Below the pieces are notes generated by a model, which had not been told where the DNA came from, searched no databases, and saw only the letters and a list, made by a program, of their open reading frames with translations. A DNA stretch of 64,000 nucleotides from an uncultured Pirellulaceae bacterium (GTDB lineage: Bacteria; Planctomycetota; Planctomycetia; Pirellulales; Pirellulaceae): NCBI GenBank assembly GCA_964577115.1, contig CAZNXJ010000002.1, positions 252,285-316,284 of the forward strand, written 5' to 3'. A program made the position numbers and the translations under genes. This document shows, piece after piece, positions 2,509 to 58,705 of this stretch (within the stretch, counting starts at the first letter, position 1; the number at the start of each line of letters is the position of its first letter).

Positions 2509-2653
2509 TCGTCAAGGGCGAGGGTTCGGGGGGAGGCCTTCGAGAAGCTGTGGAGGGCAGGGGACTCGCGCAATCTGCGCCGTGACATTCTCGGATGACA
2601 GCTATCTGAAACCTGAACCCGGTCGAATCCCTCGTACTTTTTTCTCTCAGGTG

Positions 2654-3541
2654 TTAGGTGGCCGGCTGCGCTGTGGCTGGGGCTGGAGAGACCGGCGAAG
2701 GCAGTGTGGCGGCGACGGGAGCTCCGGCCCCTGGCGCATTGGATGGAGCGATCGGCAGCATGATCGTCATCGCCGTCCCGCGCCCGACCGTGCTTTCGAC
2801 GCGAATGCGGCCTCGATGCGCTTCGATAATGTCGCGGCAGGCCGCCAGCCCCAGCCCACTGCCTCCGCGGCCGGTTTCATCGGGCCCGGACTTCGTGCTG
2901 AAATACGGTTCAAAAATGTGCCGCAGCTTGTCCGGCGGAATGCCCGCACCGGTGTCTCGGACCGTCAGATCCACCATGCCGCGCGCTTCGTCCGGCGCGA
3001 TACGAATGGTCACTCGTCCGCCGCTGGGCATCGCTTGCCGCGCGTTGATGAGCAGGTTGAGGAGCACTTGCTGGATCTGGTTACCGCGCGCTAGCACGGG
3101 CGGAGCTGGTTCGAACTGCCGTTCGACGTCGATGCGATATTTGCGCATCTCGCGTTCGAGCAGTACCAGCGAGTCGTCGACCAGCGTGGCCAGGTCGGTC
3201 GGTTCGAAGCCCTGGCTGCGATTGCGCGCGACGCCGAGGATCGAGTTGGTGATCTTGGCCGCGCGCTGGCCGGCAGTGTGGATTTTCTCGAGCGCCTTAG
3301 TGCGCGTCGCCTCGTCCGAACTGCGCAGCCCGAGCCGCGCGTAGTTCAGGATTGTCATCAACACGTTGTTGAATTCATGGGTGGTGGTGCTTGCCAGTTC
3401 GCCGAGCGCCGTCAGTTTTTGTGCGTGCGCGAGCTGATCCTTCAGCATCGCCACTTGCTGTTCCAGCTTTCGGACTGTGTCCTCACTCCCCGTCGCCATG
3501 CCAGATCCGTCTTGTTCGAATTCGTCTCGGGTGCGGGCCAA
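2654..3541 (-). CDS. Soluble histidine kinase (HisKA + HATPase_c) with a Pro/Ala-rich C-terminal tail
   Basis: H-box HEFNNVLMTILNYARL. The N/G boxes (RDTGAGIPPDKLRHIFEPYFSTK, GGSGLGLAACRDIIEAHRGRI) are present. There is no TM or sensor domain, and the C-terminus is PGAGAPVAATLPSPVSPAPATAQPAT. Confidence 0.8.
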   Translation of the reverse strand: MARTRDEFEQDGSGMATGSEDTVRKLEQQVAMLKDQLAHAQKLTALGELASTTTHEFNNVLMTILNYARLGLRSSDEATRTKALEKIHTAGQRAAKITNSILGVARNRSQGFEPTDLATLVDDSLVLLEREMRKYRIDVERQFEPAPPVLARGNQIQQVLLNLLINARQAMPSGGRVTIRIAPDEARGMVDLTVRDTGAGIPPDKLRHIFEPYFSTKSGPDETGRGGSGLGLAACRDIIEAHRGRIRVESTVGRGTAMTIMLPIAPSNAPGAGAPVAATLPSPVSPAPATAQPAT

Positions 3542-3660
3542 ACGTGCGGCATCGCGCGAGCATCGTACGGCGGCAGTCCCAGGTTCTCCGCCTTGCCAAA
3601 GTCGCGGCGGCTACGCCTCTTGCCTTGCGTTCGCGCCTTAACTTGCTGTGCCTGCGATGT

Positions 3661-3676
3661 TTACGTCATTACGTCA
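3661..3676. promoter_or_regulatory. Tandem direct repeat TTACGTCA x2 (TGACGTAA x2 on the other strand), about 120 bp upstream of the soluble histidine kinase
   Basis: Read directly. It resembles CRE-like TGACGT half-sites. Confidence 0.25.
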
Positions 3677-3780
3677 TATCGTCGAAGCGCGGTAGGCAAC
3701 TATAGCGCAAAGTCGTACAATCCGCTCCGCACACGTCTTACCCGGGTTTTCGTCCCGCAATCCCTGGCAGGAGGCCGAAG

Positions 3781-3982
3781 GTTGCACACCGTCGAACGAC
3801 TCGAACAAACACTCGCCGCCGTCCGTCAGCTTGGCTACGAAGTACGCATGGAGTGGCTCGAAAATGGCGGCGGCGTCTGCGAATACAAAGGGCGGCGCTG
3901 GTTGTTTGTCGATCTTGCCCAAACTGCCGCCGAGCAGCTCGAGCAGGCGCGTGCCGTATTGCGCCAGGCCGCGCAGCAATAG
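3781..3982 (+). CDS. Possible small hypothetical protein (TTG start)
   Basis: This is the 3' part of ORF 3278..3982, outside the kinase gene. Its tail reads HTVERLEQTLAAVRQLGYEVRMEWLENGGGVCEYKGRRWLFVDLAQTAAEQLEQARAVLRQAAQQ. The start is uncertain. Confidence 0.2.
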
Positions 3983-44400: not shown

Positions 44401-45263
44401 TCGCCGGCGTGAACTCGCTCGTCGTCAGCCCTCAGGGCGACCAGGTTTTTGCCGGCAGCGTAGCCGTTACGGCCTGGCGCATTCCGGAAGGCTCCCCGGC
44501 AGGCCAAATGGGAGACCGATACTTTGCCACTGCACTGGCCAATCATGCGCAAGCGCCGGGGCTTTGGATATACCAGCTTTGGCAGATCAACCTGTTCAAT
44601 CCCCGCTCGATGAAGAGCCAACGCCAGCGAGCAATCCCGCTTCGTGTCGACGGACCGTTTACCATCAACTCCGCCGGGACCACCCTGGCTGTGGGAGGCC
44701 AGGAGCTTGAGCTGTGGGATTTGCAGACGGGGACGCGGCTCCCCAGTATTTCTCGGTCCGACGGCAAAGTTGTCGCCCTGGCGCTTAGCGATGACGGAAC
44801 GCTCATAGCCGCGTGTATCGAGCAGAACGATACGCAGCGTCTGGAGCTTTTTAATACCGTAAGCGGCAAGCTCATCCATTCGTTCGAAGTTCCGGAAGGT
44901 CAGCACTTAACCTGCCTGGCGTTCAGCCCCGACAGTCGAATATTGGTTGGCGCGGGCTGGGGCGGTCCGCCGCGGCGCTGGAAGGTGGACGACGGCAGCT
45001 CGCTATCGTCGCTCGATGCAGGGGAGGTGAGCGGCCTCGATTTTAGCCCCGATGGGCGCTGGCTTGCGGCGTTGGGACGCGACGAGACAATTCGGATCTG
45101 GGACGCCGTGACGGGCGAAGCGGCGCGGACCATTGCGCTTGGCGAGGATCTCTCGGATGCCTGGCTACGCTCATTAAGCTTTGCGCCCGACAGCCGGCAT
45201 TTGCTGGTCGGTACGGCCAGCGGCATGGTGCTCGTGTTTCGGATAGAAGAGCAAGGGAGATAG
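38481..45263 (+). CDS. Giant (2260 aa) membrane-anchored Ser/Thr protein kinase with zinc ribbon, WD40 beta-propeller arrays and an internal leucine-rich-repeat block
   Basis: Zinc ribbon CPHCHN...CESCG. Kinase motifs GVGAYGVVW, HRDLKPSNVLLD, DFGLAK, GTPAYMSPE. TM helix IAALATTVLVVLLTGIVVSGSF. Many SPDG/WD-like repeats. LRR region (~42470–43160) LRRLSLDKLS...LEYLNLARTPV...LRELLLRETNV. Confidence 0.85.
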   Translation: MTSARGRSEYLQQLVRQALKLPADQREAWLARRAGEDKRLLHELQVLLEKYDQPQTKAGPLDTIELPQPEAAPERPRGLRIHCPHCHNAVEVLKDADDALEQILCESCGSSFQIVEGRTTTYSSECRRIGRFTLVEQLGVGAYGVVWRGRDAELDREVAVKIPREGRLSPEEQAKFLREARAAAQLAHPHIVAVHEIGRDDGRLYIVSDLVRGLTLADWLTGQTASPRQAAEWCAKIADALDHAHQQGVVHRDLKPSNVLLDEQLEPRITDFGLAKRDAGEITMTIEGQVLGTPAYMSPEQARGSGHNADRRSDIYSLGVILFELLTGERPFRGNARMLIHQVLSEDAPSPRKLDASIPRDLETICLKCLEKDPAKRYSTARELAEELRRWLRGEPVLARPISRAARAVRWAHRNRAIAALATTVLVVLLTGIVVSGSFAVLANRHAQELQIALWNVDAQRSRADQQAAQAIARSEEARRERNRALQAEREMRRLLYQADMRNAFQALSDGNTGRVREHLLAHVPEPGQTDLRGWEWYHLWDRIHDYTTLLPHMPAVTSLAISKDGRYLASVDASWGMVRFWELPTGQLVSLIREATNLRHVEFSPDGTLLTAGKWDVTEAPIWNWQRGLPQTTLEAPASLFVSVAWHPAGNLLAGGSKYNGRIQLFDVSTGEVVRGMAVPTSTVGRITFSPDGSLLAARANSGEIHLIDMESGETRTTLPGSGGYGFEFFTLRFSADGERLVTSGPQGTHLWDVRSPGTSTQLEGHSAVNDAVFSPDGRIVYTAGDDGRVVAHRADNGQPLQAYLGHAQRARALVMSSDGKLLVSAGEDGLILVRDLARQTPTVIDQSLVLAHSPPNESPTSRSAAFLPDGRMISAWGKHIIIWNEKFTAPESLIDTGTSVHRFAVSPTGAICASYHLGDQRIALWDVAQGSHIGTLEARTHVNCLAFSPDGEQLLAGGRDRHGFVVWDLQTLSRHHSLRIDHWANRAAWSPDRKTIAAASDLPGPVQLYDAESARPRMTLARQDTEIYALAFSPDGRMVVSGGADANVTLSDAASGETISVLRGHIGSVLDLTFSPDGNLLASAATDGTVRLWDIPERRERAVFSVGKDKSITTVCFSPDGRTLVAVEGDHLHIWRAASEDDVAAQLSRERALQNVSRLELLESLVRGHGRRDLEPDLAHAIFMEAYTNVIQGDIKAASAALERVEDLIENAKPRNEALALRWQELAYYIAELRPAMLMAEGRTQKAQEALKEAYRLWGEFPQELQRRPLAGLALPNRGELRRQRLAAATEAEFERAVAEEFLFQNLPQPVTITLVDGTTLVLTTPHDVPDEPFHVREIRLWSDSVSDADIEILARLPELEALTIFESNETPIDSAIIDKLSLLRRLRRLSLDKLSSRTLTHVAQLRQLEQLTLRGADLSQLSEDDLAAFGRMGNVRWLELDGTAASNELVRAIATMPNLEYLNLARTPVADEALRELAECSGLKYLILDSTLVSDEGVIEILTLPSLRELLLRETNVTDAIVEAALRRAEPLDYFGLNATRVSSRGVALLRHAWPNCELFHDASPETRNASRSFPALDTLRQRLNVVREEIASGASTAARWRSELVPWHFAEQGTPHGVEIASLLRTFPWPLDQLERAALSDEQRRMMETVAGRVPEELVAVFGDGRLTFWGEGFGRAAFGEKHVAVLSYNGNYQEWNSANGLFERVVKGWPSVCGLSPDGSLAASTDENTLRVWETADAAVVREWDGVGTVRFVAFRPGADQIAVALANGRLKLYSYGDVTEPIEVRSGGPAAVAVDFDPSGEYLVERDSDMELRVWRVHPLSDHPAPIASVRTQHGTDRENRLLAVARDAKVIAVAGTSAIELYFGHDGTRIGQIDLRMLNRDNRRLDLLDSLAISPDGSLLVGGDNSGQIGFWSVPDGQNLGIIRERVSWVNILEFSDDGKLLAAGGHDSLTLIDPVLRTVVAQADPLAGVNSLVVSPQGDQVFAGSVAVTAWRIPEGSPAGQMGDRYFATALANHAQAPGLWIYQLWQINLFNPRSMKSQRQRAIPLRVDGPFTINSAGTTLAVGGQELELWDLQTGTRLPSISRSDGKVVALALSDDGTLIAACIEQNDTQRLELFNTVSGKLIHSFEVPEGQHLTCLAFSPDSRILVGAGWGGPPRRWKVDDGSSLSSLDAGEVSGLDFSPDGRWLAALGRDETIRIWDAVTGEAARTIALGEDLSDAWLRSLSFAPDSRHLLVGTASGMVLVFRIEEQGR

Positions 45264-45284: not shown

Positions 45285-46976
45285 TCAATTTTCCGCGAAC
45301 TGCGCCATGTACTGCTTTTCGTTATCGGCACTGCCGATCAGAATCAAGCGCGCGTCTGGGGAAAGCCGTGTATCGGGCGGTGGATTGGCGATCATGTGCT
45401 CCCCCGTTCGAATCGCGACGACGTTGCAGCCGGTTGATTCACGGATGGAGGTCTCGCCGAGCGTGCGGCCGGCGAGCTTGGGCGGAACGTCGACCTCGAA
45501 AGCGCTGAGCCCCTCGGCCAGCAGCAAGACGTCGTGCCGCCGCAGCAGATTGAAAATGGCGTTCGCGCCGATCGATGCGTACGACATGACGAAATCAGCA
45601 CCCGCGCGGTGTAAAGTATCGACGTTGCGATCAACGGTCGAACGGCTGATGATCTGAATGTCCGGGCGCAGTCGCCGGCAATACAGCGTCAGGTACACAT
45701 TCATGTCGTCGTCGCTCGTCGTAATCACAACTGCGGGCGACTCCATCAGACCGCCGCGACGGAGCACGTGCAGATCCGCGGCGTTGCCGACGATGAGCCG
45801 GTCCGATGCCAAGCCTGCCTCCGGAGCGCGTTCAATGATCCGGTAGTCGACTTTCTGACGCGCTAGTTCCTCGGCGCACGCCTGGCCGACTCGTCCACCG
45901 CCGATGATCACTACCGGCGCGTCGATGGATCGATAGATGCAAAACAGCGCATCGTAGTCGTCCAGTTGTTCGCGCGTGCCGGCCAGCAGCAACACGGTGC
46001 TTGGCAAAATGCGTGTTTCGGGGCCGGCCGCACTGAACTCGCCACGCTCCCACACGCCTACGACGTTGACCTGGGCATGTTCAGGTAGCCGGATCTCGCG
46101 CAGCGTGCGGTTCACGAGCGGCGTATCGGCCGCAGCTGCCTCGGCGATCAAGACGCCGCCCACCTGACCAATCACGTGGCTCTTCGCGTCCCGCCCGAGC
46201 ACTCGCCGAGCAAGCCCGCGGCCCATCATCTGCGACAGTTCGAGCACACGGCTGCACCCGGCCATCTGAAGAATGTCCACCGAGGCGGCATCGCGCGCGG
46301 TTGCGACGATCGGCGTCCGTGCGGCTACGGACCGTGCGGTGAATGTGACGTTGGTATTGACCATGTCGCTCAGCGTCGTGGCGAGCAATGCCGCGTTGGG
46401 AAGACGCAGCCGTTCGTACGTCAGTGGATCGTCTCGTTCGCCCACAACCACATCGATGTCCGTGTCATGGAGCCGTAAGGCGGCTTCGACATCCGGCACC
46501 AAGACGACATAGGGATAATGACGCTGCTCGAGCAGACGAATCAGAGCGGTCTCGACGGGCCCGTAGCTCAGCAGCACCACATGCCCCGACACCTCGCGAG
46601 GAAGCTCGCGCGGGGCAAGCGCCGCGACCTGGGCCTGCATCCAGGGAGCGTAGAAGAACTCGATGAACGTAAACGGCAGGAGGACGAGCATGAACAGCGT
46701 GCCGCTCAGTAACACGACGATCGAAAACATGCGGCCCACGTCCGAATGGAACGTGATGTCGCCGAAGCCGAGCGTCGACATGACGGTCAGTGTCCAGTAC
46801 GCGCCCGTGATCCAGCTATACCTCCGCCCCTCCCACACCATGAGGAGGTGGAAGATCACGGTATAGACGAGCACCAGCACGGTCATCGCGAGCAGCAGGA
46901 ACCAAAGAATCCGGAGGTTGCGCTTCGCGGTGCGGGTAGCGAGTTGGTGTGTGAAGAGCGCGGGTAGGAATTTCAT
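45285..46976 (-). CDS. Two-TM potassium channel with tandem RCK (TrkA-N/TrkA-C) gating domains
   Basis: Pore helix and selectivity filter WTLTVMSTLGFGD. Two Rossmann RCK motifs, VVLLSYGPVETALIRLL and VVIIGGGRVGQACAEEL. Confidence 0.8.
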   Translation of the reverse strand: MKFLPALFTHQLATRTAKRNLRILWFLLLAMTVLVLVYTVIFHLLMVWEGRRYSWITGAYWTLTVMSTLGFGDITFHSDVGRMFSIVVLLSGTLFMLVLLPFTFIEFFYAPWMQAQVAALAPRELPREVSGHVVLLSYGPVETALIRLLEQRHYPYVVLVPDVEAALRLHDTDIDVVVGERDDPLTYERLRLPNAALLATTLSDMVNTNVTFTARSVAARTPIVATARDAASVDILQMAGCSRVLELSQMMGRGLARRVLGRDAKSHVIGQVGGVLIAEAAAADTPLVNRTLREIRLPEHAQVNVVGVWERGEFSAAGPETRILPSTVLLLAGTREQLDDYDALFCIYRSIDAPVVIIGGGRVGQACAEELARQKVDYRIIERAPEAGLASDRLIVGNAADLHVLRRGGLMESPAVVITTSDDDMNVYLTLYCRRLRPDIQIISRSTVDRNVDTLHRAGADFVMSYASIGANAIFNLLRRHDVLLLAEGLSAFEVDVPPKLAGRTLGETSIRESTGCNVVAIRTGEHMIANPPPDTRLSPDARLILIGSADNEKQYMAQFAEN

Positions 46977-47063
46977 CGACGTGAAGTGTACCCCTTCGTT
47001 TGTATCGTTTCGAGGGGAACTACGAATGACTCGAATGATACAAACGTGGGCGGCTTGGTGGGA

Positions 47064-50000
47064 TTAGGCGCGGTTCCGAGCGGCTTCCAGCTCGGCGAGA
47101 AGCCGCTGGTAGCTGGCCAGGCAGGTTTCGACCGATTGCTGGAGCCGAGTGACCTCGGCCGTTTGCCGTTCGGTCGATTGCTGCAGGGGCGCAAGCCACG
47201 CATTCATCAGCTCGAACTGCCGCTGAACGACCTCCAAAATCGAACGCGGCACCTTGTGCTGCACCACGACTTTGGAAATGGCCTTCCCGTCTGTCTCGGA
47301 CGGCGCGTCGCTGCCGGGCAACGCCGTTGGGCGAGCGATCGATTCGCGCAAGGCGCCGAGCTGCTCGGCGAGCGCATCCATCCGCGCGATGGTCAGCTGC
47401 TGATCGCCGTCCTGCTGAGCGAGGCGCGCGGTGGCGTCGATGACGGCTTTGCGGATCATTTCCAGGCCTTCGGTGACGCTGCCCAGCTGCGCGATGACGA
47501 GGCCCGCTTTATCGTCCGAACCAACGCCACGCAGCTTGAGGTTCTGCCGGAAGGCCCGGCAGATATCGTCCCAGCGCTGCTGCTGCTCGTCGGTCATGAT
47601 GCCCATGAGCTGCCGGAACTTCAGCAGATTCGCCTCGGTGTCGGCGGTCAGTGTCTGCGCGTCGTTCTCATAGTTCGAAACGATGAGCCCCGTCAGCTCG
47701 TCGTCGTTCATCATCGGCACTACTTTCTCGGCGATACGGTTCATGTTGCGGTACGAGCCCTGCAACTTGAACGGCGGCTCCGTGCGGTACTCGTCGGCTT
47801 GTGCCGCCGAGCGGATGTACTGCCGGTTGACGCGGAGCACCACATCGCGGACGCGCAGCAGCTTCTTCAGCACGGACACCGCGTCAGCAATCTCGTCGGG
47901 CGAGTAATTACCTTCCAGTTCGACGTCGCTCTGATTGCCCGTCGTGGCGATTTTTAGCAGCCCGTGGATATCCTGTGGATACCGCCCGACGATCTGGGCG
48001 AGCGTCGGGTTCGACATCATCGAGTTTTCGACGTAGCTCAGTTCGAAGACATCCTGCGTATCGCCAATGATTTCACCGAGATTGTAGATGTCGGCCCGGT
48101 TGGCCAGCATGTCCGGGATCTGGAACCGTTCGCCGCTTTCCGTGTACGGATTGCCCGCCATGACGACTGCCACCCGCCTGCCGCGCAGATCGTAGGTGCG
48201 CGAGCGGCCGCGGTAAACACCTTCGATTCTGCGCTGTGCGTCGCACAGCGAAATGAACTTCTGGAGTAGCTCGGGATGGCAATGCTGAATGTCGTCGAGG
48301 TACAGCATCACGTTGTCGCCCATCTCGAGTGCCAGGTTCAGACGCTCGAGCTCCTCCCGCGCCGCGGCATTGGTGGCCTCCGAAGGATCGATGGACGTTA
48401 CTCGGTGACCGATTGCCGGGCCATTGATTTTCACGAAGACGAGTCCGAGACGATTCGCCAGGTATTCCATCAGCGTCGTCTTGCCGTATCCCGGCGGAGA
48501 CACGAGCAGCAATAGCCCCATCCGCTCGGCTCGCTTCTGATCGCCCGCCGCGCCGATCTGTTTGGCCAGGTTGTCACCGATCAGCGGGAGATAAACCGAA
48601 TCGATGAGCTTGTTGCGGACGAATGACGACAGGACTTTGGCCTGGAAATCGGCGAGTCGCAGCCGCTCGCGCGCTTCGTCGATCAGTTCGCGTTTCCGCG
48701 CCGTGAGACGCGTGAATCGCGGCACGACGTCGGCCATGTACCGGCTGAGCTTATGGCAGAACGTGTTGTAATGGAGATCGTATGTGTGCTCTCGCACGAC
48801 CGGATGATCGCCCGCCATCGGGCTCAGCCGCCGCCGCAGCTCGCCGTCGCTGATCTTCGCGGCGTCGAGCTTTCCTTGGAGCAAGAGGACGGCGAATTCA
48901 TCCGCGTAGATCTCGTCGTCGCTCGTCGGGCGCCCCGCGAGAAACGCATTCGCCCAGTCGCGGGCAAGACGCAGCGAAGTGAGTGGGTGTTGCTGGACGG
49001 CGTGCAGCGACTTCTGAAAGGCTTCGGTGCCCTGGTGGGTACGGAGCTGCGCGTGAAATTCGTCGTACAGGTTGGCTGCGGTGCGACTGACAACGAACCC
49101 GACATCGCGAACACATTCGGCGTAAAGGTATTCCGCCGCCTCCCGCGCATGGGAACGATCGAACACACCGCTCCGCATGGCGAAGTCGTCGAGCGCTTCG
49201 GCTAGTTCCGCCACGTACGCGTCGCGCTGTTCAGGCCTCGGAAAATAACGTACGACCGCGCTGTGCCCTCGTAACAGGGCCGATAACCGCGACTTTTCGG
49301 CGGGCTCGCAGAAGTACGTCCAGTAGGCAACCGCCATGGCCCGTGCGGCCGGATGGTATCGAAGCAGTCCGGCGAGCGACCGCACTTCGGCGAGCGCATG
49401 CACCAGCAGGCTCGCGTCGACATCGTGCACGCCCTTCAAATAGCCTTCCTGGTAGCGCGGCCCCATGAATCGGCGGACCCATTCCAGTCGCTGCGCCTCG
49501 TCCATTTGCATGATGGCCGCGAGCGTCGGGCCTTCGGGCGTATCGATCGTCTGTAGTAGTTGATACGCCAGGTACTCGGCGCGGTACACCTGCGAGTTTT
49601 CCGAGACAAGCTCCTGCGACCAAAGGTCGCGCGCCGCATCGAGCGCTGGATCGTCAATCGGTTCGAAGTAGTTCGTCCCGGTCAGGTGAATATGCATCCG
49701 GTTGTCGCGGACGATAAGCGTCACGTCGAGCGGCTGCGTGTTGACAGAGAAGCGGTGCCGGCCGAGCTGAATGGTGTTCTCGCCGGCGACAAACAGGTCC
49801 TGCCGGTCGCGAAGCTGCCGCAGCCCGTCCTCGCGCAGGGCCTTCAGCCGGCTTTGTAGCTCGTCGACTTTGACGCTGTCTTCGAGCTCGGTGAGCTGCC
49901 GGATGATGTCGCGGACTTTTTCGACCATCAGGTCGGACGCGAAGTAGCCATTGATTTCGCTGACCGACTGAAGCGTATCGATCCGCGACTTCATGCCCTT

Positions 50001-52394
50001 GAGGATGCGATCGGCCGCGCTCATCAGCGCGCCGGCTCGCTTGTTCCGCGCCTCGATGAGCGCCAGCTTCCGAGCTTCGAATGCGCTATAGGTTTCCTCG
50101 CGCTTTTCCGCTAGCTGCACGACGAACTCGTCGAACTCGGCGAAGCGTCCTTCGAGCTCCTCGATCTGGACCGCCAGCTTCGTCAAAAACTCGTCACAGC
50201 GTGGCGGCGAATCGCACATTTCGAGATAATTGACGACGGACTGGTTCAGCAGCTTGAGCTGTGCGTGGAATTCGGCCGCGCCTTCTGCCGACTGGAGCTC
50301 CTTCGTGCGGCTCTTGATTCGCGCCCGTGTATGGTTCAGTCGCGCGAACAGGGCGGAGATCGCGTCGATAATCGCCGTCCGCTGCGTCGCATCTTCGATT
50401 TTCAGATTGCTGACCACGTCGATCAGCATTTCCAGATCCGCGGCGCCGCGCGTAACGTCTTCGTCCAGCTTCTTGGCTTCGACCACGGTCGCGAGGCTAT
50501 CGATCTGTTCGGCCTGCTGGCTGATCCGCTGCTCGTAGGGATCGAGCGCCGTGGATTCCAAAAGGAACGCAACACAGCGGTGCGCCAGCCGGTCGGTATC
50601 TTCGGCGACGTGCTTTTCGAGCTTTTCAACGGTCGCCACGTCAACGTACCGGAGCTCGCGGAGACCAATCACTTCGCCCCGCAGGCGGCGCAGTTCGGTC
50701 AGCGACGAGACGAACTCATCGATTGACGCAAAGCGGCGGCGATGGACGGCCGCGATCGTCTCGGCGACCTGCTTCTGCATCGCCGCGGTTTGCTGCGCCG
50801 TATTGCGCCGCACGCGGACGACTTTTTCAAATTCCTCAACGGCCGCAGCCGCAGTATCGCGGATTTGCAGCAGCGGCTCGGCCAGGTTGAACGTTTCCTC
50901 CCGGCCGATCCAGAAATAGGCGTCGATGATTTCGCCGCACAGCTTCGCCAGGTCTACGTACAAATTGGAGTACGTATCGCCTTTGGCAAGCAACCCCAGG
51001 ACGGCGTTGCACTCGGCCATCCCGCGTACGATATCGCGGTTGCCGACTTTGTAGACGAGCGATTCCGTGTCGCTGACCGGTAGCGGCAAATCCTCCGAAA
51101 CGTAGGGCGTCCGCCAGATCTGTAAGGCATGGTGCTTTTGCGGTTCGTCCTGTCGCTTGAAACAGATCAGTTCACCGCCGTGCAGCAGCGTTGCGCCATG
51201 GCAGATTAGCGGCGAGCTGACCTGCTGCTCGATCATGTTGTACTCGAGCAGCACGACCTCGCCGGAAACGAGGTTTCGGAAAACGTAGAGAAAATCTTCG
51301 CCGTTCGGTGCGGCGATCCGGCGCTCGAACACGAGATCGTCGGGGACGTTTTCGAAGATTTTGCAGTCACCGGTCTGGAGGTAGAAGCCGTTCGGAAAGA
51401 TGAGCCCGTGATCGTCGGGCAGCAGGACGCACGCGTGCTCGACGGCATCCCACCGCCGCGCTTCCTGAGTTTTCTCGTTGTAGACGATGTGGCGGTATTC
51501 GTTTTCCTTGTACGGGCGAATGCGCAGCAGGATCAAGTTGCCAATGATCGCGTAGTAGATCTCGGCATCGTCCAGCGTCTGATCCTTCTCGCGGACTTCC
51601 TCGCTGTAGATACCCTCGCCGGTGTCCGTGTTGTTTTCGATCTTGATCGTCAAGTCGCCGCCGACCGTTTCGACGAATAAGCGATCTTCGATGGCGACGT
51701 GCGGATGAAGGCCGAAGTGATGCTGATCGCGCGTGGTGCGGATCCACTCGAACTCGTGTTGCGGAGGTAGGCGGACCTCGTGGTCGCTGCGGTTGTCGAT
51801 ATAGATCAGCTCGTCGCCCGCCACCTGCCACTTGAGCGCCTTGATGTCCCCGGTCGTACGGCCGACCTGAAACACCATGTACAGCAGCGCGCCATCGCGG
51901 AAGAAACGCAGGAAGGTGGCGTTTTTGTAATAGCGGTAGATCTCACTGAAGTCGCGTTGAAAGTTGCCGTCCTCGAGTATGTCCAAAGGCAGCTCGTGGA
52001 AGACATTATCGCGCAGCTCATAGATGCCAAACACGTCGGCCGGTTCGGTCGTGGCCTTGAGACCGAAGCGGACGTTGTATCCGAACAGGAAGCGCGTCTT
52101 CAGCGCGGCGACGTCGCGCGGCACGCAGTTGTGGACCGTCGTGATCCGTTCGGTCGCCAGCAAGGTCGATTCGATGGAACCGAAGACTTCGCGCCGCTTG
52201 TTGTTCAGCTTGTCGAGGCGCGTGCGCAGTTGATCGGCGTAGGACTTGAGCCGGGATTGAATGATTTCGTAGGAGCCGCCTTCCAGCTGCACCTGCCCGG
52301 AGGCCCCCGAGTCCGGCTCGGTTGCGGTCGTCGCCATCGTTGTGCTCTCGCTGCTGGATCCACAAAGGACCTGGATGACGCGCTGGGGCGTCAT
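47064..52394 (-). CDS. Giant (1776 aa) protein with a single MoxR-like AAA+ ATPase module and long coiled-coil regions; no recognised family
   Basis: Walker A LLLLVSPPGYGKTTLMEYLA (~48500), Walker B VMLYLDDIQH, and a sensor region VAVVMAGNPY...RFQIPDMLANRADIYNL resembling MoxR/AAA_5. The first ~1200 aa and the last ~300 aa are unassigned. An alternative start is 52337. Confidence 0.7.
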   Translation of the reverse strand: MTPQRVIQVLCGSSSESTTMATTATEPDSGASGQVQLEGGSYEIIQSRLKSYADQLRTRLDKLNNKRREVFGSIESTLLATERITTVHNCVPRDVAALKTRFLFGYNVRFGLKATTEPADVFGIYELRDNVFHELPLDILEDGNFQRDFSEIYRYYKNATFLRFFRDGALLYMVFQVGRTTGDIKALKWQVAGDELIYIDNRSDHEVRLPPQHEFEWIRTTRDQHHFGLHPHVAIEDRLFVETVGGDLTIKIENNTDTGEGIYSEEVREKDQTLDDAEIYYAIIGNLILLRIRPYKENEYRHIVYNEKTQEARRWDAVEHACVLLPDDHGLIFPNGFYLQTGDCKIFENVPDDLVFERRIAAPNGEDFLYVFRNLVSGEVVLLEYNMIEQQVSSPLICHGATLLHGGELICFKRQDEPQKHHALQIWRTPYVSEDLPLPVSDTESLVYKVGNRDIVRGMAECNAVLGLLAKGDTYSNLYVDLAKLCGEIIDAYFWIGREETFNLAEPLLQIRDTAAAAVEEFEKVVRVRRNTAQQTAAMQKQVAETIAAVHRRRFASIDEFVSSLTELRRLRGEVIGLRELRYVDVATVEKLEKHVAEDTDRLAHRCVAFLLESTALDPYEQRISQQAEQIDSLATVVEAKKLDEDVTRGAADLEMLIDVVSNLKIEDATQRTAIIDAISALFARLNHTRARIKSRTKELQSAEGAAEFHAQLKLLNQSVVNYLEMCDSPPRCDEFLTKLAVQIEELEGRFAEFDEFVVQLAEKREETYSAFEARKLALIEARNKRAGALMSAADRILKGMKSRIDTLQSVSEINGYFASDLMVEKVRDIIRQLTELEDSVKVDELQSRLKALREDGLRQLRDRQDLFVAGENTIQLGRHRFSVNTQPLDVTLIVRDNRMHIHLTGTNYFEPIDDPALDAARDLWSQELVSENSQVYRAEYLAYQLLQTIDTPEGPTLAAIMQMDEAQRLEWVRRFMGPRYQEGYLKGVHDVDASLLVHALAEVRSLAGLLRYHPAARAMAVAYWTYFCEPAEKSRLSALLRGHSAVVRYFPRPEQRDAYVAELAEALDDFAMRSGVFDRSHAREAAEYLYAECVRDVGFVVSRTAANLYDEFHAQLRTHQGTEAFQKSLHAVQQHPLTSLRLARDWANAFLAGRPTSDDEIYADEFAVLLLQGKLDAAKISDGELRRRLSPMAGDHPVVREHTYDLHYNTFCHKLSRYMADVVPRFTRLTARKRELIDEARERLRLADFQAKVLSSFVRNKLIDSVYLPLIGDNLAKQIGAAGDQKRAERMGLLLLVSPPGYGKTTLMEYLANRLGLVFVKINGPAIGHRVTSIDPSEATNAAAREELERLNLALEMGDNVMLYLDDIQHCHPELLQKFISLCDAQRRIEGVYRGRSRTYDLRGRRVAVVMAGNPYTESGERFQIPDMLANRADIYNLGEIIGDTQDVFELSYVENSMMSNPTLAQIVGRYPQDIHGLLKIATTGNQSDVELEGNYSPDEIADAVSVLKKLLRVRDVVLRVNRQYIRSAAQADEYRTEPPFKLQGSYRNMNRIAEKVVPMMNDDELTGLIVSNYENDAQTLTADTEANLLKFRQLMGIMTDEQQQRWDDICRAFRQNLKLRGVGSDDKAGLVIAQLGSVTEGLEMIRKAVIDATARLAQQDGDQQLTIARMDALAEQLGALRESIARPTALPGSDAPSETDGKAISKVVVQHKVPRSILEVVQRQFELMNAWLAPLQQSTERQTAEVTRLQQSVETCLASYQRLLAELEAARNRA

Positions 52395-52441
52395 CCAGGT
52401 CTTTACCGTGCTTTCCGCGTCATCCGTGGATTACGGAGGGG

Positions 52442-54508
52442 CTACGTGCGTTCGGAGCTGCCGGCTAGCCGACTTTTGCCCGCCGCATCGCGGCCTCCAA
52501 CGGCATCCTCGAAGCTTTGGTGCGACAATCCCGAGTTGTGCGCGAAGCCGAGCATCCGCTCGAGTTCGCTGCGCAGTTCGTCGGTCTTGGCGAGCCCCAG
52601 CATTTTGCCGATCAACGCGGCGATCGAAAGGTCGCGGACGTCGGACGAGTCGATCTTAAACTGCTCGATCAACGACTGGAGCTTGTCCCGGAAGTAGTCC
52701 GGATTGCCGTTGAAGAACGAGTTCTTGATGTCGGTCAACGTCTCGCTGTTGTGGATCAGCCGATCGACGGACTTGCCGTTCTGGATCGAGTTGATGATGC
52801 GATCGAAGAACGTGCTTTCGCCACCCACGATATCGATCCGGGCGTTCTTGAGGCCTTCCGAAACGATGATGCTCTGCGCCTCGGCGATCTCACGCTGCGC
52901 TTGAATGGCTGCGATCTGGATATCGCGATCCTTGTTCAACCGCAGCTTGAACTCTTCGTGTTCTTTGCCGACGCTGTCGAGCAGCTTCATGGCGTTGGCC
53001 TTCTGCTCGATGCCTTCGGCTTCGCTGAGGTACTTGATGCGCATCACGTTGGCCTCGGCCTGGCCCTGTTTCTCGATCGCTTCGGCCTTCGCGATCTGGA
53101 TCTGGGCTTCGGCCAGGCCCTCGGCGGCCGCTTCGGCTTGCTTGGCTTCGGCCAGCATCTTGGCGGCGTGCGTCTGCTTCTCCGCTGCCGCACGCTTCGC
53201 CTCGGCCTCGATGACGATCTGTTCGGCGATCAGTGCGGCCGCCGTCTTCGCCGCTTCGGCCGCCTTGATCTCGCGAATCAAAGCTTCCTGCGCCTGCATT
53301 TCGGCTTCGGTGATCTTCACGGCCTTGAGCCGATTTGCGCCGGCCAGTTCTTCCGTGTCGAGGATCTTTTGCTGTTCTTCGACAACGGATCGTTCGACCA
53401 TCACCCGCTCGCGGATCACTTCCTGCATCGAACGCTTCTCGACTTCGAGCGACTTGTCCTTGTCGATTTGCTTGAGGGCAACGAGCCGTTCGCGTTCGGT
53501 CGCTTCCAACTCGCGGTCCCGCGCCACGCGTTCCGTTTCGACCTGTTCCGTGCGTTCTTTATTTTTCTGAGCGACGACGATTTGCCGCAGCTTGTTCTCT
53601 TCGGCGATCTGCACGGCTTCTTCGGTCTGGATCCGAGCCGTCTCGGCCTTGAGCCGCTCTTCTTGTTGGACGCGGATGGCCTGAGCCTGCTCGCGCGCGG
53701 CGATCTCCGCGATTTCCCGGCGCTGTTTCTCTTCGGCCTCAATTTGCTGACGTTCGAGCGCGAGGATTGCTTCCCGCGCCTCGACGTCCTGCTTTGTAAT
53801 CGTTTTCTCTTTTTCCCGCGTGATGCTGTTCGCCAGGATGTGCTCGCGGGCCGTCAGATCGGTAATCTTCTTGATGCCTTCGGCATCAAGAATGTTGTTC
53901 GGGTTGAGTTTCTCGAGCGGCGTTTGCTCGAGGTAGTCGATCGCGCAGTCGTCCAGAACGTAACCGTTCAGGTCGGTACCAATGACCTTGAGAATCTCTT
54001 CCTTGAACCGGTCTCGCTCGTTGTACAGCTCGACGAAATCGAACCGTTTACCGACCGTTTTCAAGGCTTCGGAAAATTTCGCATCGAATAGTTCAACAAG
54101 CGCCTGCCGCTCGGACGCGCGGCGGCAGCCCAGCATTTGAGCGACTTGGAGGATGTCCTCGGTCGTGTTGTTTACGCGCACGAAAAACGCAACTTCGATG
54201 TCGGCGCGGATGTTGTCGCGGCAAATGAGTCCCGCTTCCCCTCGGCGCTGAATCTCGATCCGCTTGACTGAGAGGTCCATCTCCTCGACGCGGTGCAGGA
54301 TCGGGATGATAAACATGCCCGAGCCGCTCTTGGCACGCAGGGCTCCGCCGCCGGACACGACAAGCGCCGTTTCGGGGCCTACCTTGCGATAGAAGCGCGC
54401 CAGCAGCACGGCTAAACCGAGCAGCGCCAGAAAGATCGCTCCCACGACAATCGCCACATAAGGGACAATTGAGGGAGGGGACTGGGCAAATACGAGTGCG
54501 TAGGTCAT
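52442..54508 (-). CDS. SPFH/band-7 flotillin-like protein (FloT/YqiK family) with a long EA-rich coiled-coil
   Basis: N-terminal TM VAIVVGAIFLALLGLAVLLA, SPFH block, and a flotillin-type E/A/K/Q-rich heptad region (AEAKRAAAEKQTHAAKMLAEAKQAEAAAEGLAEAQIQIAKAEAIEKQGQAEA). The start was chosen at MTYALVF (54508), which overlaps the NfeD stop (ATGA). The upstream 129 codons of the listed ORF overlap the NfeD gene. Confidence 0.8.
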   Translation of the reverse strand: MTYALVFAQSPPSIVPYVAIVVGAIFLALLGLAVLLARFYRKVGPETALVVSGGGALRAKSGSGMFIIPILHRVEEMDLSVKRIEIQRRGEAGLICRDNIRADIEVAFFVRVNNTTEDILQVAQMLGCRRASERQALVELFDAKFSEALKTVGKRFDFVELYNERDRFKEEILKVIGTDLNGYVLDDCAIDYLEQTPLEKLNPNNILDAEGIKKITDLTAREHILANSITREKEKTITKQDVEAREAILALERQQIEAEEKQRREIAEIAAREQAQAIRVQQEERLKAETARIQTEEAVQIAEENKLRQIVVAQKNKERTEQVETERVARDRELEATERERLVALKQIDKDKSLEVEKRSMQEVIRERVMVERSVVEEQQKILDTEELAGANRLKAVKITEAEMQAQEALIREIKAAEAAKTAAALIAEQIVIEAEAKRAAAEKQTHAAKMLAEAKQAEAAAEGLAEAQIQIAKAEAIEKQGQAEANVMRIKYLSEAEGIEQKANAMKLLDSVGKEHEEFKLRLNKDRDIQIAAIQAQREIAEAQSIIVSEGLKNARIDIVGGESTFFDRIINSIQNGKSVDRLIHNSETLTDIKNSFFNGNPDYFRDKLQSLIEQFKIDSSDVRDLSIAALIGKMLGLAKTDELRSELERMLGFAHNSGLSHQSFEDAVGGRDAAGKSRLAGSSERT

Positions 54509-55155
54509 GCCTTCACCTCTTCTTCGACGTGGGGCTGTTGAACTTTTTCGACGTAATAAATGAGCGTGGCGGGGTCGTAGTCCACGATGCGAGCGCGATC
54601 GCCGCGCGTCAGCACGCCGCTGCGCGACCGGACGTGTAGCAGTAGCGGTGCGCCTTCCGTGGGGAGTTTGGCCTGCCCGTGCTGGTCGGTTACCTCGGAT
54701 GTCGAGATCGTACAGATCTCGCCAACCAGGTCCTTCGACCGGCGCAGCTCCGTGCGGTCGACCAGGCGGGTCATCGGTTGAGTGATCAGCTTGGTTGCCA
54801 GCAGCGCGACCGCTCCGTTGCGCAGCATCGTCTGTAGGGCAATCCAGTTGTCCTTGTTGGCCGCCGGTTCGTGCCAGAGAACCGACGTCAGCCACCAGGC
54901 GAGGGCAAATACCGTCATCCAGAGCATTAAGGGAATCGAGCCCAAATTTAGGAAGCGCAGGACGATCGCCCCGGACCCGGCAAACCAGCCGGAATGGGAT
55001 CCTGCATCTGCGTCCACATCGATCTCGAAAACGTCAAACATTTCGAGATCCAGTGCGCCGAGAATGACAAACGCCCAGTAGATGCTGACGAGGATCAGCA
55101 TCAGGGATGCGGGTAACGCCGGGCCCGAAAAGCAGGTATGCAGGATGTCGCTCAT
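54505..55155 (-). CDS. NfeD/YqiJ-like membrane protein (flotillin partner) with a C-terminal OB-fold
   Basis: TM segments LMLILVSIYWAFVILGAL and LMLWMTVFALAWWL, plus a C-terminal beta-barrel signature GEICTISTSEVTDQHGQAKL...GDRARIVDYD. Internal start at MSDIL; the listed ORF extends to 55323. Confidence 0.7.
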   Translation of the reverse strand: MSDILHTCFSGPALPASLMLILVSIYWAFVILGALDLEMFDVFEIDVDADAGSHSGWFAGSGAIVLRFLNLGSIPLMLWMTVFALAWWLTSVLWHEPAANKDNWIALQTMLRNGAVALLATKLITQPMTRLVDRTELRRSKDLVGEICTISTSEVTDQHGQAKLPTEGAPLLLHVRSRSGVLTRGDRARIVDYDPATLIYYVEKVQQPHVEEEVKA

Positions 55156-55723
55156 GCTGCGCGTCGATCTGTCATCCAAGGCCCCCCTATGGGGCTCGGA
55201 GCGTTTGGAAGGTGTCTCATTCACCAATGACACGGAAAGCTTGGCAACGTTGCGAGCCGTCAGCATGTGGCGTCTTGGCAACGTTAGGTTATCGCCGCCG
55301 CATTCCCCGCCGGAGTAGTGCAAAATTGCCCGGCGCGCGGCGCGCGCTGCGGCCGGCCTTAGCGATTGGCGCGATCGGGAGGCTCACGAGCGGTTCTGCT
55401 ACGGCGGCACGCAAGCTCCGTGGGTACCGGTTGGAACGTTCGCTATGGGATCAACTCCGTCGGCTCCGTCGAGCAACACAGCTCAACATAGCCGGTTCAG
55501 CGTGAAGGCGCTCGCCTGGCCTCCCGACGCGACGCCTCCGAGGTCAACTGTATCGGCAGAAAATCATCCAGCATTAGGCGCGCGGCACCATGAAATTCAA
55601 GAGATTTCTTGGGGGGCTCGACCATTTCTTATTTCGCCTCTCCCGGCGTGGCACAGCATCGCTACCCCACATCGCACCGAAATCGGCGCGATCGCCCACG
55701 AGGCATTCGGATGCTCCCGCGCA

Positions 55724-57871
55724 TCATTCGGCCCGGTCGAGATACTCGCGCGCCGCGCGGTGCCACGGAAGAAACGTCCAACTCGCGGCCGTCGCCCGCG
55801 AAATGCAGGCGGGATTGTCGATCTGATAGAACGCGTCGAGCGTGGCGTGGACCAGTGCGGGGGGAGCGGTCGGGTGCGTGACGAGAAACGCCGGGGTACG
55901 GACGGTCTCCCATCCCTCAGGCTCGCGAATCGCCTCGGGATAGACCGATTGCGAGAAATGGCAGCGCTCGAGCGTCGGGTCGTCCCAGTCGTCCATGGAT
56001 GGAAGCGAAACGAGCCGGAACCGGCCGGTTGCGAGGGCCTGAGTGACCGGTTCGCTGTGCAGCACGAGCGTCACGATCGCGGCGTCCGCCGCTTCGTCGG
56101 CCAAAAACTGGGACCAGGTGTAGTCGCGTACCGGGCTGTCCGTCGGCAACTCGAAATGCTTTGCCAACGCTTCCGCCGTTAAACGCATGCCCGAGCCGGG
56201 TTCGCCGAGGCAGATCCAGCGGCCACGCAGATCTTCGAGCTTCTCGATGGGGCGGTCGGCGCGAACGACGACGTGGACGACTTCATAGAACACCGGAGCA
56301 ATCACGGTGACCTCGTCACCGTGCATCGCTCCGGCCTGGAGGAGCCCGAGATGGTATTTGCGGGACGTTACGAGCTCGCTGTTTTCGATCGATCCCGAGG
56401 TGTGGCCAACAAGCACCTCGCGGCCAGTGGATTGGTACAGCGACTCGGCAAGTTCCTTTGCGAACCGATCGTACATGCCGCCTTCACGGCCGGCGGCAAT
56501 CCGGATGCGCGCGGGAAGTCGGTTCGGCGGACCCGCGGGTGAACGCATCCAGAGCCCCAAGGCTACGACGGCGCAAATCGCGGTGAGCACCAAGGCGGCT
56601 TGCGCGCGACGCTGGCCCACGGTTGGCAGGGCAGGGTGCCGGCCCACTAAGGCCGCCACGATGGGGATGCCCAACGTCCAGTAAACCAAGCGACGCACGC
56701 GTCCGATCGGCCGCGCCTGGATCGGCTCGCCGCGGAGGTAGCGGGCCAGGTCGTCGGCCAACTCTTCGGCCGTTGCGTACCGCTTCGCCGGATCCTTCTC
56801 CAAACATTTGAGGCAGATCGTTTCCAAATCCACGTCGGCCGAAGGATTCAGCTCGCGCGGCCGACGCGGCTCGTTGTGCACCACCGCGTAGATCGTGTCG
56901 AGCGCCGTTGATGCGCGAAACGGCGGTTGGCCTGTGAGCAGTACGTAGAGGATCGCGCCGAGTGAATACACATCGCTGGCGGGGCCGAGCTGATCCCATT
57001 GGCCTGTGGCCTGCTCGGGCGGCATGTAGCTCGGCGTCCCGATTGCGATGCCTGTACTGGTGAGCTCGAAATCGGCTTCCAGGTGCTTGGCGAGCCCGAA
57101 ATCCGTGACGCAGGGCCGGTCGCCGACGTCGATCAGGATGTTGGCCGGCTTCAAGTCACGGTGGAGAATGCCTTGGCGATGAGCGACGTCGACCGCGCGG
57201 GCGACGGTTTCGAGATACCGGGCCGCGCGGCGCGGCTCCATCGGTCCGTTCGCGCAGAGATCGGCGAGGTTCGGGCCTTCGATCAGGTCCATCGAAAAGA
57301 AGTGACGCCCGTCGATTTCGCCGACCTGATAGATCGTGACGATATTTGGATGGTCGACTTTTCCAGCCGCCTGCGCCTCGGCGTAAAACCGCTGGATGTC
57401 CTCGCGGCTCGCAAAGCGGCCCGCCAGGATCATCTTGACGGCGCAGATGCGATTGAGGCTGATTTGCCGGGCCTTGAAGACGACGCCCATGCCCCCGCGG
57501 CCGATGACTTCCAGCAGCTCGTAGTCCCCAAATCGCTCGCCCGAATGCGGTTCCGCGAGCCACGCCGTACCGCCGCTCGCCGTCCGTTCGCTCGGATGAT
57601 GCACGAGCGTTATTTGATCCGCCGGATTGGCCTGCATTTCCGCTGCCGCGGCGAGGGGCGGGCCGGCCATCGAGTCGATTAGGTCGGCCGTGTCGAGCAG
57701 CTGAGCCATCTCCTCACGCAGCGCCTCGGGACACTCGGCCAGGAACGCCTCGCGGTCCAGCGTTTCGCCGGCGTCCTTCCGCAGCAAGTACTCGGCCATC
57801 CAATGGTCAAGCTCGCTGCGCTTCGCGTTGCGGCCGGCCAACGGATCGAGTTGTTCGCGTCCAACGAGCAT
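55724..57871 (-). CDS. Transmembrane Ser/Thr protein kinase with a C-terminal periplasmic solute-binding (PhnD/SsuA-like) domain, downstream of an ECF sigma factor
   Basis: Kinase motifs GRGGMGVVFKA, HRDLKPANILID, DFGLAK, GTPSYMPPE. TM segment. The C-terminal ~270 aa resemble phosphonate/sulfonate periplasmic binding proteins. Confidence 0.8.
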   Translation of the reverse strand: MLVGREQLDPLAGRNAKRSELDHWMAEYLLRKDAGETLDREAFLAECPEALREEMAQLLDTADLIDSMAGPPLAAAAEMQANPADQITLVHHPSERTASGGTAWLAEPHSGERFGDYELLEVIGRGGMGVVFKARQISLNRICAVKMILAGRFASREDIQRFYAEAQAAGKVDHPNIVTIYQVGEIDGRHFFSMDLIEGPNLADLCANGPMEPRRAARYLETVARAVDVAHRQGILHRDLKPANILIDVGDRPCVTDFGLAKHLEADFELTSTGIAIGTPSYMPPEQATGQWDQLGPASDVYSLGAILYVLLTGQPPFRASTALDTIYAVVHNEPRRPRELNPSADVDLETICLKCLEKDPAKRYATAEELADDLARYLRGEPIQARPIGRVRRLVYWTLGIPIVAALVGRHPALPTVGQRRAQAALVLTAICAVVALGLWMRSPAGPPNRLPARIRIAAGREGGMYDRFAKELAESLYQSTGREVLVGHTSGSIENSELVTSRKYHLGLLQAGAMHGDEVTVIAPVFYEVVHVVVRADRPIEKLEDLRGRWICLGEPGSGMRLTAEALAKHFELPTDSPVRDYTWSQFLADEAADAAIVTLVLHSEPVTQALATGRFRLVSLPSMDDWDDPTLERCHFSQSVYPEAIREPEGWETVRTPAFLVTHPTAPPALVHATLDAFYQIDNPACISRATAASWTFLPWHRAAREYLDRAE

Positions 57872-58084
57872 GGAGGTAACCGAGAGCGATCAGGACGAGA
57901 GGAGTGGAACGGAGCTGTTCGAGCGAAGGGGCCTTTCACGTTATCGCGAGCCGCCGGAGGCCTTGGAGGTTCGGGCCGCTCGCCGACGGCCGCGTGCTAC
58001 CGCGCGCAGGCCGCCCCCTTAATCTAGGTTGCGCCATGCCGGCTATTCGCCGGGCCGCTCCTCTTTCTTGGCTCAAACCGGCAA

Positions 58085-58705
58085 CTAATCGGGCGCGCTC
58101 GAGTCTTCGTGAAATATTTCACGAAGACGCTGGAGGCCCCGTTTGATCAGCCCGGCGACGGCCAGTTCCGATCGTTTCATTTCTCCGGCAATTTCCCGCA
58201 GGGTATGGCCTTCGAGGTGCCGCAGGCGCACGGCTTCCTGCTGGTCGGGTGGGAGCTGGCCGATGGCCTGCGCCAACCGAATAGCCGCTTCGCCCCGCAT
58301 CGCCCGCTGGCTGGGGCTTGACCAATCGGCGGCGAGGTAGTTGGCCAGCGCCTGTCGATCGGGCCCGGTTTCATCGAGCGACCGTTCTTTGTTGGCGGAC
58401 CGTTTCTTGGCGATGACGTGCCGTTGGATGGTCTGGTAGACGTTATTTTGAAGAATCTTTCCGAGCCACGCGACGAGTTCGTCTTCGGACGAGCCGCGGA
58501 ATCCTCGCAGGTCGCGCTGGGCTTCGAGCAGCGTTTGCTGCACGAGGTCGGAGGCATCGACACGCGCGCGCAGCCGGCCGACGAGCCGGCGTTTGGCCAG
58601 CAGGTACAAGTAATCGCGGTACTCGTGGAGCAAACGCCCCATGGCTTCCGCGTCACCGGCCTGAGCGCGTCGCAGGAGGGATTCGTCGAACACAGCGCGT
58701 GACAC
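58085..58705 (-). CDS. ECF-type RNA polymerase sigma-70 factor
   Basis: Region 2 (LLHEYRDYLYLLAKRRL...DLVQQTLLEAQRDL) and region 4 HTH (QQEAVRLRHLEGHTLREIAGEMKRSELAVAGLIKRGLQRLRE). Confidence 0.85.
   Translation of the reverse strand: MSRAVFDESLLRRAQAGDAEAMGRLLHEYRDYLYLLAKRRLVGRLRARVDASDLVQQTLLEAQRDLRGFRGSSEDELVAWLGKILQNNVYQTIQRHVIAKKRSANKERSLDETGPDRQALANYLAADWSSPSQRAMRGEAAIRLAQAIGQLPPDQQEAVRLRHLEGHTLREIAGEMKRSELAVAGLIKRGLQRLREIFHEDSSAPD

Follow-up and report, generated by a model that had tools for sequence, protein, structure and literature searches.

A flotillin, NfeD and AAA+ ATPase gene triad within a six-gene row of an uncultured Pirellulaceae bacterium

We analysed a row of six genes on the minus strand of a 64,000-nt stretch of contig CAZNXJ010000002.1, from an uncultured Pirellulaceae bacterium (62% G+C; the whole stretch is hereafter called the window, and positions are window positions unless another contig is named). 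The row spans 45285–58705 and encodes, from its upstream end, an extracytoplasmic function (ECF) sigma factor, a Ser/Thr kinase, a small NfeD-like membrane protein, a flotillin-like protein, a giant AAA+ ATPase and a K+ channel. An earlier note, made from the sequence alone, had described these genes as collinear and tightly spaced, and had read them as a single membrane-microdomain ATPase machine that controls ion flux. All six open reading frames (ORFs) were confirmed at the following coordinates, and all are co-oriented. The NfeD-like, flotillin-like and ATPase genes, hereafter the triad, are the main subject of this analysis.

45285–46976, minus strand: GsuK-type K+ channel with two transmembrane (TM) segments and tandem RCK domains (563 aa; Pfam Ion_trans_2 and two copies of TrkA_N/TrkA_C)
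46990–47054, minus strand: imperfect hairpin in the gap between ATPase and channel (RNA fold)
47064–52394, minus strand: giant MoxR-like AAA+ protein (1776-aa ORF; Pfam DUF3686, DUF7902 and AAA_5/AAA)
52442–54508, minus strand: flotillin/YqiK-like protein, a likely SPFH scaffold (688 aa; orthologues plus weak profile and fold evidence)
54505–55155, minus strand: YqiJ/NfeD-like small membrane protein, first gene of the triad (216 aa; borderline YqiJ_N match)
55724–57871, minus strand: receptor Ser/Thr kinase with a C-terminal TAXI/NMT1_3 solute-binding domain (715 aa; Pfam/NCBIfam)
58085–58705, minus strand: ECF sigma factor of a planctomycete-specific subfamily (TIGR02984, above its curated cut-off)

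The spacing within the triad is tight. The stop codon of the NfeD-like gene and the start codon of the flotillin-like gene share an ATGA overlap, read directly in the sequence, and the two genes are translationally coupled or nearly so. The flotillin-like gene is separated by 47 nt from the first ATG of the ATPase ORF, and the ATPase gene by 87 nt from the channel gene, in agreement with the overlap and the gaps of ~48 and ~88 nt that the earlier note had given. Residue M20 of the ATPase ORF (window position 52337) is invariant in a nine-sequence, five-phylum alignment (A1) and is the start called on contig L090, a near-identical contig from the same organism that was reached through its identical flotillin protein. 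M20 is thus probably the true conserved start, judging from the sequence comparison, which would give a protein of 1757 aa and a flotillin-ATPase gap of ~104 nt.

Conservation of the triad across bacteria

Homologues of the giant ATPase are numerous: 4137 fell within the scored candidates, and a search of representative sequences with residues 1–1200 placed the family in approximately 1450 clusters at 50% identity. The contig index searched contained no identical copy of the protein. Relatives of the giant protein are encoded in at least 594 of the 600 stretches matched among the GTDB species-representative genomes, and the family occurs in at least 10 phyla. For the gene neighbourhoods we took 80 loci from the species-representative scan and six from complete genomes and plasmids, and compared every ORF in each locus with a query set made up of the six proteins of the row, one PspA and one K+ protein from Streptomyces. 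The counts given here refer to the 71 loci with at least 3 kb of sequence upstream of the ATPase gene, which represent at least 8 phyla.

A flotillin-like gene lies upstream of the ATPase gene on the same strand in 68 of the 71 loci, and a flotillin-like and a YqiJ/NfeD-like gene both lie upstream in 64. The spacing between these two genes is mostly −4 to +60 nt. The triad is therefore near-obligately co-linear and co-oriented in nearly every ATPase-bearing genome examined. The scanned loci belong to Planctomycetota, Bacteroidota, Verrucomicrobiota, Desulfobacterota, Bacillota (Clostridia), Omnitrophota and Kiritimatiellota, and annotated records add Actinomycetota, Deinococcota and Pseudomonadota (Gammaproteobacteria: Pseudomonas fluorescens pQBR103, Proteus mirabilis and Vibrio campbellii). 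The linkage was also seen in Symmachiella, Gimesia, Hymenobacter, Streptomyces, Deinococcus, Pseudomonas pQBR103, Proteus and Vibrio.

The remaining genes of the row are not part of this pattern. A K+ channel-like gene occurs in one of the 71 loci (Streptomyces plasmid L004), where it is divergently transcribed; the ECF sigma factor occurs in none, and the kinase in one, at a non-adjacent position ~5.4 kb upstream of the NfeD-like gene. Homologues of the giant protein thus do sit next to SPFH and NfeD genes in other genomes, and the order NfeD–SPFH–AAA–K+ channel suggested by the earlier note holds across genomes as far as the ATPase and fails at the channel.

Unsupervised clustering of the neighbouring ORFs gave only three more families with a fixed position, all confined to Bacteroidota: a PspA upstream (20 loci), a CesT/Tir-like protein (15 loci) and a divergently transcribed helix-turn-helix regulator (18 loci). 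PspA is also carried by the Hymenobacter and pQBR103 loci. In Bacteroidota and some plasmid loci, CesT/Tir-PspA genes add to the module on its upstream side. Other large neighbour clusters, such as those of ATP-binding cassette (ABC) ATPases, are generic and scattered, and no VWA protein, nuclease or channel recurs among the clustered neighbours.

The distance between flotillin-like and ATPase genes reaches 0.5–2.4 kb in L017, L033, L037, L045, L064, L065 and other loci of Bacteroidota and Verrucomicrobiota. Some of these intergenic gaps (L023, L032, L035) hold a small ORF that is DUF559-type endonuclease-like by eye (cluster 12).

The three proteins of the triad

The NfeD-like protein has two to three hydrophobic (TM) segments at its N-terminus, followed by an acidic linker and a C-terminal NfeD/OB-like region. 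Its match to YqiJ_N is borderline (E 7.7e-5; 23.3 bits against a cut-off of 23). Among 13 orthologues, YqiJ_N was matched in seven and the NfeD C-terminal domain in three, and the Hymenobacter orthologue is annotated as DUF1449. The start at 55155 agrees with a 216-aa gene call on L090.

The flotillin-like protein can be divided into an N-terminal TM segment, an alpha/beta domain (residues ~40–210), long Glu/Ala-rich helices (209–560) and a C-terminal helical domain. A 100% identical 688-aa database entry (P0121) confirms its start, and NCBI, UniRef and JGI list homologues under the names 'flotillin family protein' or 'YqiK'. Profile evidence is faint: the NCBIfam FloT model matches with an E of 5.8e-6, far below the family cut-off, and Band_7 was matched in two of 14 orthologues (best 9.3e-11) and in P0228. 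Searches of the Protein Data Bank (PDB) by sequence and profile gave one marginal match, to QmcA (E 0.0095), which covers the coiled-coil region only. An AlphaFold2 (AF2) model contains a TM helix, a small alpha/beta domain and helices of 170, 100 and 60 residues; its mean predicted confidence (pLDDT) is 62.7, and two stretches of the putative SPFH region (78–109 and 177–208) fall below 50. The top Foldseek matches to the model, used only as a ranking pattern because the model is of low confidence, are all SPFH cages: flotillin-1/2 (9bq2), HflK/C, stomatin, prohibitin, QmcA and erlin. Taken from sequence and model, the 688-aa protein is likely to be an SPFH member. The Glu/Ala/Lys-rich coiled-coil part of this minus-strand gene coincides with an AT skew of −0.30 on the plus strand (52001–54000).

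The giant protein begins with a coiled coil and DUF3686 (residues 56–494; E 3.5e-183), followed by DUF7902 (616–699), a long helical region, the AAA+ module (~1290–1470) and a helical/coiled-coil tail. No hydrophobic, TM-like segment was found in it, and no protease domain was detected with Pfam. Within the AAA+ module, AAA_5 is matched above the Pfam cut-off and the closest folds are NorQ and CbbQ; the module is MoxR-like, as the earlier note had proposed. The Walker A motif (GYGKT), a Walker B-like motif, sensor-1 N1415 and Arg R1433 are invariant in alignments of nine sequences from five phyla and of 56 planctomycete sequences. The Walker B motif is LYLDDIQH, equally invariant (D1367 and D1368; window 48293–48295), with DD rather than the DE of the canonical hhhhDE pattern. 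PDB sequence and profile matches of the AAA region are confined to the surroundings of Walker A, and the same searches gave nothing useful for the N-terminal 700 aa, for which they returned no solved homologue.

Databases give the family another role. In NCBI, UniRef and Pfam its members go by 'DNA repair ATPase' or 'ATPase involved in DNA repair', and weak matches to RuvB_N and RuvB are present, as would be expected if the giant protein acted in DNA repair and its membrane-gene neighbourhood were incidental. The RuvB matches, and those to p97, cover the Walker A region only and lie below curated cut-offs, however, and the closest folds are NorQ and CbbQ rather than RuvB. In addition, no nucleic-acid-binding domain was detected, linkage to flotillin and NfeD is near-universal and PspA is often nearby; a full-text literature search found no paper naming DUF3686 and none pairing 'DNA repair ATPase' with flotillin. 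We consider a repair function extremely unlikely and the name misleading.

The channel, kinase and sigma factor as neighbours

The channel gene encodes a protein with two TM segments, the selectivity filter TLGFGD and a pore followed by tandem RCK domains. It aligns over residues 16–557 to the GsuK structures 4GX5 and 4GX0 (E ~4e-120) and by sequence is an orthologue of GsuK of Geobacter sulfurreducens, matching it at full length with the same pore-plus-tandem-RCK architecture. This likeness is one of sequence similarity and concerns the neighbouring gene alone; it provides no link of GsuK to SPFH or AAA+ proteins. The kinase combines a Pkinase domain (E 3.7e-50), a TM segment (424–442) and a solute-binding domain (NMT1_3, E 6e-11; TRAP_TAXI, E 4.8e-19). 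The sigma factor matches TIGR02984, 'Planctomycetaceae-specific subfamily 1', with 199.6 bits against a cut-off of 183.75. Signalling pairs of an ECF sigma factor and a Ser/Thr kinase are of a type common in planctomycetes. The start of the sigma factor is uncertain, since the gene call on L090 (5170–5727) begins 21 codons later and gives 185 aa instead of 206 aa.

Upstream of the triad the row is loosely spaced. The sigma factor and kinase genes are 213 nt apart, and the kinase gene ends 400 nt before the start of the longest NfeD ORF and ~568 nt before the start called in L090. The tight spacing described for all six genes thus applies to the ATGA overlap and the 47- and 87-nt gaps and does not extend to the two upstream genes. 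The spacer between the kinase stop and the NfeD start (55156–55723, minus strand) is unusually long, ~570 nt compared with ~175 nt in the related loci L087 and L088, and it contains neither an Rfam match nor a motif conserved with relatives.

The closest relatives of the locus, L087, L088 and L089, encode giant proteins 65–67% identical to that of the window. The TAXI-kinase and the housekeeping gene glyS are both retained upstream of the triad in all three, and the kinase is retained at this place in L087–L090 only. L089 and L090 have the ECF gene, which L087 and L088 lack, and in L089 a two-gene ABC transporter is inserted between the kinase and NfeD-like genes. Downstream of the triad, L087–L089 have a SurA_N or 23S_rRNA_IVP gene at the place of the channel. 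The channel gene itself follows the triad on the same-organism contig L090 and in none of the other loci examined. Because glyS, too, has kept its place in this synteny block, conservation at such a phylogenetic distance is not evidence of a functional connection: the neighbourhood of kinase and triad reflects synteny over a shallow phylogenetic depth, and only this organism has the channel next to the triad. The ECF sigma factor and kinase form a separate signalling module that lies near the triad by local synteny, and the channel is a genome-specific downstream neighbour outside the conserved module.

Scans for consensus promoters and terminators gave little information. A scan for sigma-70 consensus promoters returned no sites, and terminator-like sites occurred at chance level. 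No conserved promoter motif emerged when the sequences preceding NfeD in the window and in the three relatives were aligned, no ECF-type motif common to the NfeD upstream region and the sigma factor's own upstream region was apparent by eye, and an Rfam scan of 44.5–59.5 kb gave nothing credible. The hairpin between ATPase and channel (46990–47054) has a predicted free energy of −25.2 kcal/mol (z −3.07), and none of 200 shuffled sequences was as stable. It lacks a U tract and was not reported by the terminator scan; its arm is not repeated elsewhere in the window, and it has no Rfam match. It may serve for processing or stabilisation, or as a weak terminator, and the channel may or may not be co-transcribed with the ATPase in this organism.

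These observations bear on the reading of the six genes as one system, in which the ECF sigma factor and kinase would control a flotillin–NfeD–AAA+ machine, and this machine in turn would gate or regulate the RCK K+ channel, either in stress signalling or to depolarise the membrane as in abortive infection. The common orientation of all six genes, the channel 87 nt downstream without a canonical terminator and the kinase-triad adjacency kept in L087–L089 are what such a system would show, and there are Streptomyces plasmids with a K+ channel-like gene or NhaA beside the flotillin-ATPase pair. Against it stand the neighbourhood counts (one divergent channel, no ECF gene and one non-adjacent kinase among 71 loci), the lack of the channel in the closest relatives, the loss of the ECF gene or the transporter insertion in these same relatives, and the equal retention of glyS. 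The gaps upstream of the kinase and NfeD-like genes are large, and a stable hairpin precedes the channel. PADLOC gave no specific match, and nothing in its output points to abortive-infection-like depolarisation. We regard a six-gene system as very unlikely: the channel adjoins the triad in this organism alone (the L004 gene being divergent), and the ECF sigma/kinase pair does not travel with the triad.

A narrower version confines the claim to this lineage. Here the flotillin–NfeD–AAA+ module would have recruited the channel, as its client or effector, and the two would be co-transcribed through the hairpin-containing 87-nt spacer, so that membrane stress sensed by the scaffold or ATPase is converted into regulated K+ flux, with the transporters on two Streptomyces plasmids as independent instances. 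On plasmid L004, a 654-aa K+ 'NAD-binding protein' (2002–3966) and an ArsB/NhaD transporter (1–342) lie upstream of the flotillin-ATPase pair; on L091, NhaA (11125–12426) lies downstream of it. No recognisable YqiJ/NfeD gene was found in L004 or L091. The ion transporters beside the Streptomyces pairs are a probable coincidence, and we give recruitment of the channel very little credence.

On the other side of the channel gene, the plus strand (38481–45263) encodes a protein of 2260 aa whose N-terminal domain is a Ser/Thr kinase; the remainder appears by eye to consist of WD40-like and leucine-rich repeats. This gene is convergent with the channel gene, the two stop codons being 21 nt apart, and its kinase domain matches the 715-aa kinase (E 1.9e-82).

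Relation to known systems and possible action of the module

The triad corresponds to an operon type that has been described computationally, and the statement in the earlier note that no such system was known is mistaken as far as these three genes are concerned. Ravi et al. (2024; mSystems, PMC11237479) report an operon of YqiJ/NfeD, flotillin and a DUF3686 AAA+ ATPase, with or without CesT/Tir-PspA, and note that only some NfeD-flotillin pairs include the ATPase gene. In their account the abbreviated operons, which lack PspA, have the wider distribution and may act together with a PspA encoded elsewhere. The window locus has the same three proteins, domain architectures and gene order: a multi-TM YqiJ/YuaF-type gene adjoins the flotillin-like gene, the latter encodes a protein with one TM segment, an alpha/beta domain and long helices (SPFH-only top folds, a FloT match and orthologues with Band_7), and a DUF3686 AAA+ gene follows 47–104 nt downstream. 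The locus differs from the full operon in lacking CesT/Tir and PspA, and the K+ channel, TAXI-kinase and ECF sigma factor are extra, lineage-specific neighbours. Since no PspA homologue is encoded anywhere in the window, the locus represents the abbreviated version; a Hymenobacter plasmid with a Tir chaperone, PspA, DUF1449, flotillin-like protein and ATPase represents the full one.

We therefore regard it as fairly probable that the three genes are a planctomycete member of this known, experimentally uncharacterised membrane-stress or membrane-remodelling module, and the larger six-gene unit is not supported. Several observations weigh against this assignment. Three of the 71 loci (L027, L030 and L039) have no flotillin-like or NfeD-like gene within 7–10 kb upstream of the ATPase gene or elsewhere in the locus. 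The window flotillin-like protein has no Pfam match even at E values up to 1, its AF2 model is of low confidence, and the Foldseek matches to SPFH proteins have E values of 0.012 or worse. The PspA partner of the full operon is missing from the window. Judging from the sequence, the DD Walker B motif may make the ATPase a slow switch and not a motor. MoxR ATPases typically act with a VWA partner, and a VWA/MIDAS protein is neither among the conserved neighbours nor, by Pfam, among the six window proteins. The channel gene, co-oriented at 87 nt and not preceded by a canonical terminator, is a further point against a unit of three. Lastly, no experiment on any member of the module was found in the literature, and the papers found on SPFH evolution and on Pseudomonas aeruginosa SPFH proteins do not mention the ATPase.

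Better-studied systems offer partial parallels. The E. coli YqiJ-YqiK and B. subtilis YuaF-FloT pairs are two-gene units. As in the window, a small polytopic NfeD-type gene lies in these pairs directly upstream of an N-terminally anchored flotillin with long Glu/Ala-rich helices, but the flotillin-like protein of the window has a greater length (688 aa) and has diverged too far to match the Pfam Band_7 and Flot models. HflK/C-FtsH likewise couples an SPFH scaffold to an AAA+ ATPase, a coupling that we infer for the window proteins, and HflK/C is among the top folds of the flotillin model. Unlike FtsH, which is a membrane-anchored AAA protease of the classical clade, the window ATPase is MoxR-like, has no TM segment and no detected protease domain, and comprises ~1,760 aa. 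It also differs from the MoxR remodellers NorQ, CbbQ, RavA and midasin in having no conserved VWA/MIDAS neighbour, more than 1,200 aa of non-AAA regions and a DD Walker B motif.

By analogy with these systems, the probable substrates of remodelling by the ATPase are flotillin/NfeD assemblies or their clients. The flotillin-like protein and its NfeD-like partner would build a large SPFH cage or microdomain at the cytoplasmic face of the inner membrane, like those of HflK/C-FtsH, QmcA-YbbJ and flotillin-1/2. The ATPase would oligomerise and dock on this cage through its coiled-coil regions and a propeller (a fold taken from PMC11237479), and may use ATP to assemble, remodel or dismantle the scaffold or PspA-type polymers in the manner of MoxR-type remodellers. 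Alternatively, it could load or extract client membrane proteins. Such action would form part of a Psp-related response to envelope or membrane stress. The pairing of an SPFH cage protein with its own dedicated giant AAA+ remodeller suggests that bacteria have here a counterpart to the combination of scaffold and ATPase in HflK/C-FtsH or ESCRT-III/Vps4.

The Psp system first came to notice as a response induced by phage, and a role of the triad in defence against phages or plasmids, possibly through membrane disruption, would fit both this history and the presence of members on large plasmids (pQBR103 and those of Streptomyces, Deinococcus and Hymenobacter). PADLOC gave weak matches to mad8 and LmuB (E ~3e-4), but these are marginal and cover generic AAA and coiled-coil regions only; its other matches were to a generic kinase domain, with none for the flotillin-like protein, NfeD-like protein, channel or sigma factor. 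Moreover, the triad lies in conserved chromosomal synteny with housekeeping genes in planctomycetes, and no nuclease or toxin effector is conserved nearby. A defence function appears very improbable on this evidence.

The value of this finding is mainly corrective, in that the proposed six-gene 'ion-flux machine' is reduced to a known three-gene module. The triad is among the most widespread bacterial modules without experimental characterisation, and culturable or model organisms that carry it include Proteus mirabilis, Vibrio campbellii, P. fluorescens with pQBR103, and Gimesia. On pQBR103 (L006, 1–4122), genes for PspA, a rhomboid protease, DUF2491, DUF350 and DUF1190 proteins and a glutathionylspermidine-synthase-like protein precede the triad. 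These genes match the polyamine-linked (spermine/spermidine-synthase) PspA operon class of PMC11237479, so that two PSP-associated operon types are joined on one plasmid.

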